Source of the DNA: Chitinophagales bacterium
GTDB lineage: Bacteria; Bacteroidota; Bacteroidia; Chitinophagales; BACL12
Length of the DNA: 64,000 bases
Direction of reading: 5' to 3'
Assembly (NCBI GenBank): GCA_041392955.1
Contig: JAWKLB010000007.1
Span: 24,567 to 88,566 of the forward strand
Positions 15,582 through 31,000 of the stretch are shown here, one piece after another (position 1 is the first letter of the stretch; each line of letters begins with the position of its first letter). Position numbers and translations under genes: made by a program. The notes under the pieces are model-generated. The model saw only the letters and a program-made list of their open reading frames with translations. It was not told where the DNA came from and searched no databases.

Positions 15582-18500
15582 ATGAATTTAATAGCTAATA
15601 CAGGAATTCAATTATATACTGTTCCGTTTGAAATAGATCTGAATAACAACTTCAAAATGTATTTTCACGAATGGCGCGACATTGCAGACGAACAGAGAAA
15701 ATTGGAGATCGCGCATTATTTTTCGGAGGAAGAAGTTTGGATTAGAAAACAAATATTATATGGTAGTAATCTTGGATATGCCACTTTGCTTAATGATTAT
15801 AAAGTATCTGAATCATGGGAAACAATTTTAAATGACGATGAATTTGATAACAGTAGTATTATTCAAATAAAGACAGATGATGCACGGGATTCCGGCTGCT
15901 TTGATATATCTATTAGTAAACTCCATGGCTCATCAGATTGGAGTAAGTTTGAAAATACCTGGTTTCCGATGCCCTTCTTTCAACTAAATGGCAGGAGATC
16001 AGATTTTGGACCAACGAATTGGTGTAGGTTTAAACTTATTCCAAACCCGGAGGAGGGCAATCATTCTAAGTATTATCTCTTATTAGCTTTTGACACCAAA
16101 GCAGTGTATAAGGAAGAAGGGTTTGAAAGCGAGGACCTGCAAGAAACACCAATTTTTACTAATACGGCAATTCCATCCAAGAACTTTGCCTTATGCAATA
16201 CTGAAGAAGGGTTGATTGGGTATTGTTCAAATGAAAAAAATTGTCAATGGGTGGATAAATACCTTTTGAAACACTTTCATGGTGTCGATGATATTGATGG
16301 GATAAAATCAAATATGCCCAAAATGAAATATCTGGCGCAGTATATTTTTTTAATAAGATTTATTCAACAGTTTAATAAATTGCCTGATATTACATTGTTT
16401 TCTGATAAAAATGTTTCTTGTAGTTATGTAGATTTAGTGGTTGATATTGGAAATTCACGCACCTGTGCAGTACTTTTTGATGGTAGTGATTTTGCAAAGT
16501 CGAGTCCTTTGGAGTTACAAGATTTTACAACGCCAATCTCAAACGGCGAATTAAACAAATATCGAGATCCATTTGATATGCGATTGGCATTTCGCGAGGC
16601 CGATTTCGGGGGTAAGTTGGGTCTTGAAAGTAGCAGCCAATTTGTATTCCCGTCAATGATCCGTTTAGGAAAAGAGGCGAATAGACTAATTCATAAAGCC
16701 ACAAACATGAACACCGGGGCGGAAAGGACAAGCACTTTTTCCAGTCCGAAGAGATTTTTATGGGACGATAAGCCGCAAAAGCAGGAATGGGAATTTGTGC
16801 AATTGGAAAATGAACCGAGTAGAACCATCTATATACAGGGAATTTCTGAGCAACTAAATGAAGACGGGACAATTGGAGCGGGCTCCATCAAAAACCGGTA
16901 TTCACGAAAGGCATTAATGACATTTGCCTTTCTGGAAATTTTGGCTCAAGCACAAATGCAGATCAATAGTTATGAGCAACGTAAGCATTGGGGAAATGAA
17001 TCCATGTCTCGTAGAATTGAAAGAATTATTGTTACCTGTCCAACAGGCATGTCACGTAAAGAGCAAATTGCCCTGCGAAAATGTGCACTAGACGCTGCAA
17101 TAATCCTGGATAGATTCTTTGAGCAAACCTTTTCAGATGAGATAAATGAACTCGATGTGCGTAAAAGGTTAAAAGTTATTCCATCCGCAAGAAAGCATTC
17201 CAACAGCGAATCTCGAACAGAATGGATCTATGACGAAGCAACTGCCGCACAGTTTGTCTTTTTATATGCAGAAATAAAAGAAAGGTATAAAAAAAATGTA
17301 AAAGATTTCTTTGAATTCTATGGAAAAACACAATCAGATGAAGTTTTGACAGATTACAAAAATGGATCACTTACAGTGGGTTCTGTAGATATTGGCGCCG
17401 GCACTACAGATGTAATGATTGCAGAATATTCATATGATGATTCCGATTATCAATGCACGATAAAGCCGGTCCCCCTTTTTTGGGAGAGCTTTTATATAGC
17501 AGGAGATGATTTGATGAAGCAACTTATTAAACAACTTGTGCTTGAGGGACAATATTCGCCGCTTTACAAAAAATTGATTGAACTTGGCAATAAGCCTGTA
17601 GATATATTACAACCATTTTTAGGTACCGATGTCGGAGTATCATTTAGGGACAGACAATTACGCAGTGAGTTCAATTTACAGGTTTCCGTTCCACTTATAT
17701 CCTATTTTCTTGAACTTCTAAGAAGAAATTCAGATGATATAATTCTATCATACACGGATATTTTTGGTAATATGCCACCGACAAGAACAGTGCTTCAACA
17801 TTTTGAAGAAAGATTTGGTTTTAGTTTTGAAAGTGTTCAATGGACTTTTAAAAAGAAGATAGTAGCAGATATAGTAGAAAAAACATTTGATTCGCTTATT
17901 GGCAAGATATCATCTGTTTTGGCACATTATGAATGTGATATTGTTCTGCTTTCCGGGCGACCGACTTCTCTAAGACCACTGACGGATTTGTTTTTCAAGT
18001 ACTATGCAGTTTCTCCGAATAGGCTGAAATCTATGAATGATTATCGCGTAGGTATATGGTATCCTGAAGATAAGCGCTACCCTTTTATTACGGGGAACGG
18101 AAAGTTTATTAACCCAAAATCAATTGTTACAACAGGGGCAATGATTGGTCATTTAGCTGAAAAGGGCTTAAATGGGTTTACTTTGGATTTATCCGAAATA
18201 AAAGCAAAATTATTGCCAACGACTTTTAATTTCGGCAGACTTAATGAGGAAACTTTAATTTATTTAGAAACAATAATTTCGCGCGAAAAGAACAGGGTGA
18301 CCTTACGTGTTAATTCCATGCCATTACGTTTAGGTGTTCGGCAGATAGATATTTCATCATACCCGTCTCGTCCATTTTATACCTTAAATTTTAATGAATA
18401 TAAAATTGAAGACAGGGTGCTTGGGCGATTTGATGAAGACGAACCACCTTTAAGTCTAGTACAACATGAAATACAAAAGGAAAAAGATAAAATAAGATCT

Positions 18501-18692
18501 GGAATGCCTTTAAATGTTGTAATCTCCAGAGATATAGTTGATGATATTGAAATGTTGATTTTGGAAGATATAACCGATAAAGACGGAAACACTTTGTCTA
18601 AAAACTTTTTCACATTGGAAGTTCAAAGTATGAGTGAGGTTGAGAATTTTTGGCTTGATTCGGGTATATTTTCTTTAAATATTGCGAATTGA
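15582..18692 (+). CDS. Giant (1036 aa) ASKHA (actin/Hsp70-fold) ATPase, SrfB-like
   Basis: Phosphate-1 is VVDIGNSRTCAV (D at nt 16443). The connect motif is YDEATAAQFVF. Phosphate-2 is VDIGAGTTDVMI (nt 17385). The adenosine-type motif is IVLLSGRPTSLRPL. Size and position ahead of a large P-loop protein recall srfB-srfC. Confidence 0.75.
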   Translation: MNLIANTGIQLYTVPFEIDLNNNFKMYFHEWRDIADEQRKLEIAHYFSEEEVWIRKQILYGSNLGYATLLNDYKVSESWETILNDDEFDNSSIIQIKTDDARDSGCFDISISKLHGSSDWSKFENTWFPMPFFQLNGRRSDFGPTNWCRFKLIPNPEEGNHSKYYLLLAFDTKAVYKEEGFESEDLQETPIFTNTAIPSKNFALCNTEEGLIGYCSNEKNCQWVDKYLLKHFHGVDDIDGIKSNMPKMKYLAQYIFLIRFIQQFNKLPDITLFSDKNVSCSYVDLVVDIGNSRTCAVLFDGSDFAKSSPLELQDFTTPISNGELNKYRDPFDMRLAFREADFGGKLGLESSSQFVFPSMIRLGKEANRLIHKATNMNTGAERTSTFSSPKRFLWDDKPQKQEWEFVQLENEPSRTIYIQGISEQLNEDGTIGAGSIKNRYSRKALMTFAFLEILAQAQMQINSYEQRKHWGNESMSRRIERIIVTCPTGMSRKEQIALRKCALDAAIILDRFFEQTFSDEINELDVRKRLKVIPSARKHSNSESRTEWIYDEATAAQFVFLYAEIKERYKKNVKDFFEFYGKTQSDEVLTDYKNGSLTVGSVDIGAGTTDVMIAEYSYDDSDYQCTIKPVPLFWESFYIAGDDLMKQLIKQLVLEGQYSPLYKKLIELGNKPVDILQPFLGTDVGVSFRDRQLRSEFNLQVSVPLISYFLELLRRNSDDIILSYTDIFGNMPPTRTVLQHFEERFGFSFESVQWTFKKKIVADIVEKTFDSLIGKISSVLAHYECDIVLLSGRPTSLRPLTDLFFKYYAVSPNRLKSMNDYRVGIWYPEDKRYPFITGNGKFINPKSIVTTGAMIGHLAEKGLNGFTLDLSEIKAKLLPTTFNFGRLNEETLIYLETIISREKNRVTLRVNSMPLRLGVRQIDISSYPSRPFYTLNFNEYKIEDRVLGRFDEDEPPLSLVQHEIQKEKDKIRSGMPLNVVISRDIVDDIEMLILEDITDKDGNTLSKNFFTLEVQSMSEVENFWLDSGIFSLNIAN

Positions 18693-18711
18693 TAAAAATT
18701 TTTGGTTGAAA

Positions 18712-30033: not shown

Positions 30034-30043
30034 TTTAACTTTT

Positions 30044-31000
30044 ATGAAACGAATTTTATTTTTGTTAGTATGGGTCTTTACTTTAACTGACTGTTTTGCT
30101 CAGGAGGATAATTCGCTTATAGATAGGTATGATAAAAAAGTGGAAGAAAATGCCGTTTTAAAAAATGATTTGGAAATTTCACAACAGAAATACACGGAGT
30201 TATTAAAAAAATATTCTTTGGATACGATTGAGTTAAATAAAAAAATTAACAATTTGATGTATGAGCTTTTGCAGGCAAGAAAAAAAGCCGAAGAATTTGA
30301 AAAGAGTAAAATTAAGGACGAACGGGATGCCTTGAGAATCAAAGCAGATAGTTTAGATACCATTGTTAGTAGGCAAAAAATTATTATCGGCCATATGAAG
30401 GATCAAATAAAAAATGAAGAGGATTCCTTCGTTGTTGAGGTTAAAGACGCGAAAAAGGAGGGTTATAATGACGCTTTGACAAAGCTAAAAGAGACTTATA
30501 GGACTAAAACCTTTGATGATTTAGTTTTAATATCTACAAATGAATCAGTAACTCGTGATATGAATCTCCTTAAAGATGATTCCGAAACTTTTAATGTATT
30601 GAAGGATTTGCAAACATATTTTACTGCCTTGCATTTGCTATCTATTAAATATGATCAGATCCAGGTTGAGAATTCTTTAATTAACTTGAATAATATAAAA
30701 TCTAACTCGGAGTTGCTTAAAATCTTAATGGAAAACTTAACCTTGTATAAAGATTTTAGCGTTGATTTAAAGAGATCCGTGCAGCAAATAGTTGACTTTG
30801 ATAGTAAAAATGTCACCGGCGGAAACAAAGAAGTTCAAATTATGAAGTTCAATCAGATCATTGACATATTGGCATTGTATATATATAATTATTATGACTA
30901 TAACAATTATCCATATTTGTCAAATATAATTATTGAAATAATTAAACGTAAACGACAACAAGCTGATAGTGATATTTCTGATTTATTAGATAAATTATGA
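30044..31000 (+). CDS. Exported coiled-coil protein (signal peptide or lipoprotein), function unknown
   Basis: The ATG at 30044 gives MKRILFLLVWVFTLTDCFAQ. The rest is rich in heptad-like K/E/L sequence. It lies 10 nt after the upstream stop. Confidence 0.55.
   Translation: MKRILFLLVWVFTLTDCFAQEDNSLIDRYDKKVEENAVLKNDLEISQQKYTELLKKYSLDTIELNKKINNLMYELLQARKKAEEFEKSKIKDERDALRIKADSLDTIVSRQKIIIGHMKDQIKNEEDSFVVEVKDAKKEGYNDALTKLKETYRTKTFDDLVLISTNESVTRDMNLLKDDSETFNVLKDLQTYFTALHLLSIKYDQIQVENSLINLNNIKSNSELLKILMENLTLYKDFSVDLKRSVQQIVDFDSKNVTGGNKEVQIMKFNQIIDILALYIYNYYDYNNYPYLSNIIIEIIKRKRQQADSDISDLLDKL

Follow-up and report, generated by a model that had tools for sequence, protein, structure and literature searches.

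SrfB and SrfC are widespread protein families labelled "virulence factor", known from Klebsiella plasmids, Salmonella, Xenorhabdus and Haemophilus, for which we found no agreed function. An AlphaFold model of the proteobacterial SrfABC complex presents SrfA as a membrane platform on which SrfB docks and then SrfC, and the C-terminus of SrfA has been described as a lipocalin/avidin-like domain with an FLNGxW motif (bioRxiv 10.64898/2026.09.18.752743). In Salmonella, where FlhDC controls the operon, srfC and srfABC mutants are poor swarmers with normal swimming (PMC4219756); recombinant SrfABC of Xenorhabdus stockiae is reported to be cytotoxic and insecticidal, given all three of its components (PMC6950479). 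Here we describe an AT-rich operon of eight genes (g1 to g8; Table 1) within a 64-kb stretch of a Chitinophagales metagenome-assembled genome (MAG; contig JAWKLB010000007.1, the whole stretch being called the window below), in which, very probably, a Bacteroidota version of SrfABC is linked to a GTPase-centered membrane module. The SrfABC family itself is already known; what is new here is a subtilase-bearing SrfA together with a DO-GTPase-like back-end.

The second point of comparison is the group of "GTPase-centric" DO-GTPase/GAP1 conflict systems, which were computationally predicted by Kaur, Burroughs, Iyer and Aravind (eLife 2020; PMC7159879). These systems combine a TRAFAC GTPase carrying a Glu in its Walker B motif with a downstream GAP1, many transmembrane (TM) components and SH3 or PEGA domains, and they occur with alternative HSP70 or tubulin themes that include von Willebrand factor A (vWA) proteins and peptidases (PMC7159879). 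Two paralogous GTPases are found in 38% of the systems and N-terminal zinc ribbons in 60% of the GTPases, and, according to the authors, the tubulin and HSP70 themes hardly extend beyond Firmicutes and Actinobacteria (PMC7159879).

The eight genes are a genuine set, conserved across Bacteroidota and probably an operon. The original prediction, made from the letters of the window alone, had proposed eight tightly packed plus-strand open reading frames (ORFs), and all of its spacings were reproduced: with ATG starts, consecutive genes lie 19, 5, 97, 17, 2, -4 (an ATGA overlap) and 10 nt apart. Co-occurrence in other genomes had been set beforehand as a test of the idea and was borne out, with g1 to g8 standing in the same order in about 30 syntenic loci (tblastn and family hidden Markov models [HMMs]), whose proteins share from 27% to 75% identity. 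Because this gene order recurs in about 30 independent loci, it is not a product of chance. The hosts are Flavobacterium, Gelidibacter, Flavivirga, Mongoliitalea, Niastella, Paludibacter, Lentimicrobiaceae, Prolixibacteraceae, Sphingobacteriaceae and two Fibrobacterota MAGs. Among 185,579 species, each represented by a single genome, a scan recovered 52 loci, and a diverged clade of about 13 loci from gut and rumen Bacteroidales (Prevotella, Bacteroides and Muribaculaceae) has g1 to g3 and g5, with g4, g6 and g7 detected in most of its loci and g8 in L041 and L049 only. SrfB and SrfC accompany g5 in 39 of the 42 g5 loci that have sufficient upstream DNA. The g5 family is large, with more than 950 relatives in a collection of 5.8 billion proteins, none of them informatively named, and with 389 members at E ≤ 1e-30 and 1008 at E ≤ 1e-10 in a representative library of 1.84 billion. 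Host habitats span free-living sediment and water bacteria as well as gut commensals.

The operon is AT-rich everywhere (0.30 to 0.43 G+C), and in 10 of 14 loci it is poorer in G+C than its own flank, the difference in the window being 11 points. The claim that the block is compositionally foreign was upheld, since both of the hand counts behind it were reproduced (17/60 at 15601-15660 and 36/60 at 32161-32220) and the block as a whole has 34.2% G+C versus 44.3% to its left and 45.9% to its right. One copy of the operon, at 30% G+C, sits in a MAG labelled Limnohabitans sp. (L032), a value far below expectation for Limnohabitans; a spread to Betaproteobacteria was accordingly rejected, a wrongly binned Bacteroidota contig being the most likely explanation. 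No SrfB homolog was found in 50,697 phage genomes, and 2.9 million viral contigs held one with g5 and one with SrfB; this near-absence rules out a phage-borne origin and is neutral on a role in defense. A contig from another sample (L001; Logan SRR32022410) is 99.93% identical to the window over the equivalent of positions 20119-29009 and differs by a GT>TA change at 24664-24665, which is a nonsense change in g4, and by a 1-bp deletion at 27482, which shifts the frame of g6, so that both genes are split by the gene caller. Such changes may be real loss-of-function variants of the population or may stem from faulty assembly.

The assignment of the first two genes rests on matches along nearly complete family profiles. 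The g1 product matches the SrfB profile at positions 13-991 of 992 (E = 5.7e-180, 601 bits against a cut-off of 27.1), and g2 matches the SrfC family, Virul_Fac in Pfam, with E = 1.2e-108 and 365 bits against a cut-off of 28.1. Although SrfB identity between g1 and the proteobacterial proteins is 26-28%, the motifs D288-x-G-N-S-x-T294, D603-I-G-x-G-T-x-D610 and G792-R-P, corresponding to the phosphate-1, phosphate-2 and adenosine motifs of the acetate and sugar kinases/Hsc70/actin (ASKHA) fold, are invariant across Bacteroidota and Proteobacteria, and the catalytic codon at 16443 is GAT, encoding the invariant D288. In g2, for which an alternative TTG start is possible at 18682, the invariant positions are G59-x-S-Q-x-G-K-S66, the switch-I-like T106 and D343-x-L-D-F-P-G349, and the family alignment has no NKxD specificity motif. 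Sequence and profile searches of PDB sequences returned no solved relative of SrfB or SrfC; the matches obtained for these two proteins and g5 (FtsY at E = 0.009, nanobodies and designed repeat proteins) were set aside as offering nothing useful. SrfB, SrfC and g5 all lack a signal peptide.

The third gene completes the Srf trio. By hhalign, the g3 family is homologous in its N-terminal domain to four proteobacterial SrfA proteins, taken from Klebsiella, Ewingella, Rahnella and Cereibacter plasmids (probability 98.3%, E = 1.9e-14, 140 columns), and the two sides have the motif D-x-x-F-V-Y..D..V-L..W-G in common. This homology is visible only at the profile-profile level; no SrfA-family NCBIfam model matches g3 at E ≤ 0.1, and the models that do match are all of S8 peptidases. 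Ahead of the TM helix lies a Listeria-Bacteroides-repeat-like segment (about aa 180-235) that is absent from some relatives, and beyond it follow a proline-rich linker, a conserved segment, the S8 domain and a C-terminal beta-sandwich (HMM match at positions 782-893, E = 4e-14). The conserved segment has no Pfam match and is, by its position, a candidate subtilase propeptide. The catalytic triad of the protease is intact, D496, H530 and S709 being invariant, N643 likewise, and the codon at 23679 is AGC, encoding S709. The g3 proteins of three gut-clade loci (L037, L039 and L052) lack the S8 domain, yet keep the SrfA-type N-domain, the TM helix and the sandwich. Together with the N-domain homology, these relatives that retain the scaffold identify g3 as an SrfA scaffold into which a protease has been inserted, so that genes one to three read srfB-srfC-srfA'. 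The protease is an add-on and not part of the core, because some relatives do without it. The original prediction had been reminded of srfB-srfC by the first two genes only; that pairing stands, on full-length Pfam matches, and it was too narrow in leaving out the SrfA homolog. The 97-nt gap behind g3, when translated in its frame, reads QLLRIELEKE*DKLIKKI against a consensus of RRxQLExERxxLQxELxRxxxEL in the relatives, and this remnant of a coiled coil indicates that g3 of the window has lost its tail. The g6 protein was also considered as an SrfA analog and rejected (hhalign probability 0.3%).

Compared with proteobacterial SrfABC, the locus has full-length SrfB and SrfC with the same invariant NTPase motifs, and a bitopic subunit whose SrfA N-domain is predicted to be cytoplasmic and whose beta-rich domain is predicted to lie outside; both versions often stand in longer operons of about eight genes, and both occur on plasmids. 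The differences lie in gene order, in the outer part of SrfA and in the accessory genes. Where Proteobacteria have the order A-B-C, srfB-srfC-srfA' is found here and in every related Bacteroidota locus, and in g3 the lipocalin-like C-domain is missing, an S8 protease is inserted and the beta-sandwich is of another kind. The proteobacterial operon is extended by a hypothetical protein, a vWA protein, a Lol-like ABC transporter and a formylglycine-generating enzyme (FGE/SUMF1), none of which matches g4 to g8. These comparisons of sequence show SrfA as an apparently modular transmembrane adaptor whose outer domain is exchangeable, here for a subtilase. In the alphaproteobacterial SrfABC operon on the Cereibacter azotoformans plasmid p1 (L058, 3200-20772), an additional peptidoglycan-binding protein and a 628-aa serine protease are encoded upstream of the SrfA-position gene, whose product matches the g3 beta-sandwich at its C-terminus and not the lipocalin-like domain.

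The second half of the operon is built around g5. Its motifs are GIPGSGKT, IELSGE (with the Glu in Walker B) and TKSD, and K248, E321, G324, K414 and D416 are invariant in the family. The AlphaFold2 model (predicted local distance difference test [pLDDT] 85) matches EF-Tu, atlastin, G-alpha and YcjX in Foldseek with E values of 2e-5 to 1e-3, and g5 is therefore assigned to the TRAFAC GTPases without belonging to any specific known family. Directly downstream of g5 stands g6 as its conserved partner gene, which aligns with the gut-clade gene of the same position (hhalign 99.4%, E = 1e-21); the H-G-T-K-G-G motif of its N-domain is invariant, and the number of its beta-rich repeats varies among relatives. 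The g6 AlphaFold2 model (pLDDT 78) has no significant Foldseek match in the PDB, and its weak likeness to the longin/DENN-type domains of TagF, Lst4 and GATOR1 (probability 0.5-0.8, E>0.1) is to be taken as a lead only. While g4, g7 and g8 match no Pfam, NCBIfam or PADLOC family, each forms a conserved family of its own, and the N-terminal half of g8 looks coiled-coil-like by eye. Uncharacterized as a combination, the set is nevertheless not composed of orphans.

In most relatives, a ninth gene encodes a protein with a signal peptide, a tetratricopeptide repeat (TPR)-like domain with a CFDxGDYxCA motif and a variable middle domain (BACON, SH3 or PEGA), and some of these proteins end in a beta-barrel domain resembling outer-membrane proteins (OMPs). 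This gene is absent from the window by tblastn. The topology of g3, g4, g6, g7 and g8 was predicted by hydropathy, and it agrees with the earlier proposal of three cytoplasmic NTPases accompanied by five membrane or exported proteins; a trans-envelope machine is a reasonable reading of this predicted arrangement.

Table 1. Coordinates of the operon, its genes and domains, and the surrounding block in the window
Feature	Position	Strand	Description
Operon g1-g8	15582-31000	+	Eight plus-strand genes; ORFs with ATG starts
Low-G+C block holding the operon	15473-32065	.	34.2% G+C; between a type IX secretion system (T9SS)-substrate gene (left) and a SusC/SusD starch polysaccharide utilization locus (PUL; right)
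g1	15582-18692	+	SrfB, 1036 aa; cytoplasmic ATPase, actin/Hsp70 (ASKHA) fold type; Pfam PF07520
g2	18712-21549	+	SrfC, 945 aa; large cytoplasmic P-loop NTPase with long helical C-terminal part; Pfam PF10139
g3	21555-24308	+	SrfA-like bitopic membrane protein with subtilase, 917 aa
g3 N-terminal domain	21573-22001	+	aa 7-149; predicted cytoplasmic; homologous to SrfA N-domain by hhalign
g3 TM helix	22383-22439	+	aa 277-295; hydropathy
g3 Peptidase_S8 domain	23016-23771	+	Predicted periplasmic; Pfam PF00082, E = 6.8e-46
g3 C-terminal beta-sandwich	23862-24224	+	About aa 770-890; common to the Cereibacter SrfA-position protein and the gut-clade g3 proteins without S8
97-nt gap after g3	24309-24405	+	Out-of-frame, stop-interrupted remnant of the C-terminal coiled coil of g3 relatives
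g4	24406-25374	+	Inner-membrane protein, 322 aa; 3+1 TM helices; loop of about 190 aa predicted periplasmic; first gene of the module
g5	25392-26912	+	506 aa; about 230 aa of N-terminal helical repeats, then TRAFAC-class GTPase domain (aa ~230-506)
g6	26915-29086	+	723 aa; cytoplasmic N-domain, beta-rich repeats, TM helix at aa 415-433, periplasmic helical domain (predicted)
g7	29083-30033	+	316 aa; N-terminal anchor and predicted periplasmic domain; ATGA overlap with g6
g8	30044-31000	+	Exported protein, 318 aa; cleavable signal peptide ending ...FAQ
g9	31177-31812	+	4-TM ORF, 211 aa; same low-G+C block; not conserved in related loci; unrelated to the ninth gene of relatives, whose place it takes

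The separability of the two halves is illustrated by two loci in Bacteroidia/Prevotellaceae MAGs (L055, 844-14071, and L047, 113-17652), in which the g4-g5-g6-g7(-g8) module stands without any Srf gene. Upstream of the module, these loci encode a protein with vWA and fibronectin type III (FN3)-like features, a Tubulin_2 protein (E = 4e-43 in L055) and a Trypsin_2 peptidase. The same back-end therefore appears coupled either to an actin-fold NTPase and a subtilase or to a tubulin-fold NTPase and a trypsin-like protease. This arrangement closely resembles that of the DO-GTPase/GAP1 systems, with which the loci described here have in common a TRAFAC GTPase with a conserved Walker B Glu followed by a conserved partner gene, many TM components, and HSP70-fold or tubulin-fold partners with vWA proteins and trypsin-type peptidases. 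The likeness has limits at the level of families: six of ten gut-clade g5 relatives match Pfam DO-GTPase2 below threshold, at 13-20 bits against a cut-off of 27, g5 of the window matches neither DO-GTPase1 nor DO-GTPase2 (PF19975 and PF19993) at E ≤ 0.1, and no g5 member reaches the Pfam cut-off. The partner g6 has no match to GAP1-N, GAP1-M or GAP1-C in Pfam and is a positional analog only. Each locus has a single g5-type GTPase in place of a paralogous pair, g5 begins with helical repeats instead of zinc ribbons, and the actin-fold partner is SrfB rather than a DnaK-type HSP70 with GrpE. Judged by its sequence, g5 thus resembles the DO-GTPases of predicted conflict systems, at scores below the Pfam cut-off. 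A bolder proposal, which we hold to be rather doubtful, is that the Srf-bearing and tubulin-bearing loci represent two sister forms of an unnamed class of envelope-spanning machines in Bacteroidota, in which a conserved back-end (g4 to g8, mostly with the ninth TPR protein) would be driven by interchangeable front-ends of cytoskeletal fold, and which would constitute an immune or surveillance system of a new kind, operating at the periplasmic level.

Other known machines offer partial parallels. SrfC has in common with dynamin-like systems (LeoABC and "Dynamins"/Eleos) a long helical region and the motifs GxSQxGKS, the switch-I Thr and DxPG, which we take to be the dynamin-like G1, switch-I and G3 motifs; it has no Pfam, PADLOC or PDB sequence match to dynamins, however, lacks NKxD and stands among different partner genes. 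The S8 domain of g3 is, like the mycosins of type VII secretion systems (T7SSs), predicted to be membrane-tethered and extracytoplasmic, and its best NCBIfam model is indeed the T7SS mycosin TIGR03921 (E = 1.9e-37). At 129 bits, however, the match falls well short of the cut-off of 278.75, the anchor lies N-terminal to the protease and is linked to an SrfA-type N-domain, and the window holds no T7SS core genes. No known defense, secretion or toxin system matches the eight-gene set, in agreement with the earlier statement that the combination corresponds to no described system: PADLOC recognized a generic subtilase only, and the combination is absent from the literature searched. Searches on SrfB/SrfC and on follow-ups of the DO-GTPase work likewise found no published description of the operon.

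The functions that we give to the proteins of the operon are all inferred, and the assembly proposed here is to be read in that sense. By analogy with the AlphaFold model of SrfABC, the SrfB ATPase and the SrfC P-loop NTPase would dock in the cytoplasm on the SrfA-type N-domain of g3, which would span the inner membrane once and display an active subtilase and the beta-sandwich in the periplasm. The g5 GTPase, with its Glu Walker B, may serve as a nucleotide switch that acts together with the bitopic g6, and g4, g7 and g8 would carry the complex across the inner membrane and the periplasm, from where the exported TPR protein of the relatives, in some cases with its OMP-like beta-barrel, may reach toward the outer membrane. 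A disturbance of the envelope or the cytoplasm would be gated by NTP hydrolysis in SrfB, SrfC and g5, and the output could be regulated periplasmic proteolysis or envelope remodeling by which the invader is blocked or the cell is sacrificed.

Such an NTPase-gated, envelope-spanning system of biological conflict, directed against invaders and probably against phage, is the reading that we favor tentatively, and it falls somewhat short of being probable. We count in its favor the patchy distribution and foreign composition of the operon, the swapping of front-ends, the parallel to the systems of Kaur et al. with the sub-threshold DO-GTPase2 matches, and the apparent loss-of-function changes in g4 and g6 of the 99.93% identical strain. 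A genomic association is found on the Runella sp. SP2 plasmid pSP2_1 (L056; NZ_CP031031.1, 45397-76555), where a diverged srfB-srfC-S8-...-g5-g6 operon begins 1.3 kb after a complete BREX type 1 operon (brxC, pglX, an inserted AAA ATPase and restriction endonuclease, pglZ and brxL), the BREX part having 0.42 G+C and the Srf part 0.35. An AbiEii/AbiEi pair lies upstream of the operon in L063, and the flanks of other loci contain a gene with the Couple_hipA domain (HipA-type toxin-antitoxin), an N6 methylase, Cas6b and transposases. Several observations weigh against this reading. In PADLOC-DB v2, the only match is to the generic "subtilase" (E = 1.6e-19), with marginal P-loop matches for SrfC at E ~0.01; the flanks are mostly housekeeping genes, and in the window they are a T9SS substrate and a starch PUL; and the 61 flanking ORFs from 24 loci, together with four upstream contexts, gave a mixed picture that permits no statistical claim of a link to defense islands. 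A defense system of eight to twelve genes, possibly with a component in the outer membrane, would be of unusual size, and no classical effector (nuclease, NADase or pore-forming protein) is present. The analog is itself only predicted, our literature search having found no experimental follow-up of the DO-GTPase systems. The experimental phenotypes of SrfABC that we found are reduced swarming in Salmonella (PMC4219756) and the reported cytotoxicity of the recombinant Xenorhabdus proteins (PMC6950479), neither of which concerns phage.

Defense is accordingly rated only slightly above a role at the envelope or cell surface, in which a cytoskeletal-type NTPase and a GTPase switch would drive an accessory envelope-spanning complex for motility or adhesion, vesicles, or repair and remodeling, with the protease processing envelope proteins. 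This alternative is possible, if on the unlikely side. It draws on a topology that is coherent from cytoplasm to periplasm, on the ninth exported TPR protein of many relatives with its glycan- or peptidoglycan-binding domains (BACON, SH3 and PEGA) and, in some, an OMP-like barrel, and on flanks that are often housekeeping. The pairing of a GTPase with the weakly longin/DENN-like N-domain of g6 also recalls MglA/MglB-type polarity switches, although the Foldseek support for that domain is not significant (E>0.1, probability 0.5-0.8). The swarming defect and FlhDC control of Salmonella srf mutants fit the same picture (PMC4219756). A very patchy distribution and a compositional signature of horizontal transfer sit less well with it, as does the state of individual copies: the window copy is without the ninth exported gene and the g3 tail, a sister strain has broken g4 and g6, and the system therefore appears dispensable.

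The remaining explanations are considerably less probable. That the operon encodes an SrfABC-type toxin aimed at eukaryotes, whether grazers or hosts, with the extra genes serving export, for instance in vesicles, is suggested by its first three genes, which are SrfB, SrfC and an SrfA homolog, and by the cytotoxic and insecticidal activity reported for Xenorhabdus stockiae SrfABC (PMC6950479). We consider it improbable in view of the missing signal peptides of SrfB, SrfC and g5, the membrane anchor of g3, the lack of any toxin domain in Pfam, PADLOC and NCBIfam searches, the replacement of the lipocalin-like C-domain of toxin-type SrfA by other domains, accessory genes entirely different from the proteobacterial vWA, Lol-like ABC and FGE set, and hosts that include free-living sediment and water bacteria and gut commensals. 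Similarly unlikely is a dedicated export or maturation pathway, in which the anchored subtilase would act like a mycosin and process substrates moved by the NTPases. Its support comes from the mycosin model as best NCBIfam match and from one related operon (L061, 3288-9267), upstream of which a 1216-aa FtsK/SpoIIIE ATPase and a small WXG100-like protein are encoded. The mycosin score reflects general S8 similarity only, however, the FtsK/WXG100 neighborhood occurs in one of four upstream contexts, some relatives lack the protease, and no conserved gene for a candidate substrate is present. The L061 pair is in itself T7SS-like and unusual for Bacteroidota. Finally, the view that the genes are an incidental run and not a system could appeal to scans for sigma-70 promoters and terminators, which were uninformative, with hits as frequent as in shuffled sequence and a sigma-70 model of doubtful relevance to Bacteroidota promoters; it is effectively refuted by the synteny, in which about 30 loci from different Bacteroidota orders and from Fibrobacterota MAGs repeat both the gene order and the close packing.

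In the window, the operon is preceded on the left by a two-component system, a MarC-family gene and a T9SS substrate with a laminin-G domain, and followed on the right by SusC, SusD and an enzyme of the alpha-amylase family (cyclomaltodextrinase-type). As the original prediction had noted, no signs of a mobile element flank it: there is no tRNA gene within the 64-kb window, no integrase domain among the flanking ORFs scanned, and no att-like direct repeats were found to bracket the AT-rich block. A C-rich tract (ccaccccaccccc...ccctccccc) lies at 31850-31990, directly ahead of the SusC gene. A second block of low G+C (0.32-0.40) extends over 52000-59000, and most of its ORFs are orphans on the minus strand. 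A DndB/DpdB-like protein is encoded in this block at 55520-56515 (Pfam DndB, E = 5.5e-18; PADLOC DpdB, E = 5.5e-20), and an HATPase_c_3 protein beyond it at 62605-63726. These two regions may form a small defense island about 21 kb from the operon.

The finding bears on how the Srf proteins are understood. A modular SrfA suggests an extracytoplasmic effector that is controlled from within the cell, and not a secreted toxin, and the linkage of the Srf trio to a GTPase module that is also paired with tubulin-like proteins connects SrfABC to the GTPase/tubulin/HSP70 conflict systems, which are so far predicted only. The question is testable, as culturable carriers exist in Flavobacterium enshiense DK69, F. 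cellulosilyticum, Gelidibacter maritimus, Mongoliitalea lutea, Niastella yeongjuensis, Prevotella lacticifex and Prevotellamassilia timonensis. If the view of interchangeable front-ends on a conserved envelope-spanning back-end is true, the SrfABC proteins would gain their first mechanistic role, as a cytoplasmic NTPase engine that controls an extracytoplasmic effector through SrfA.

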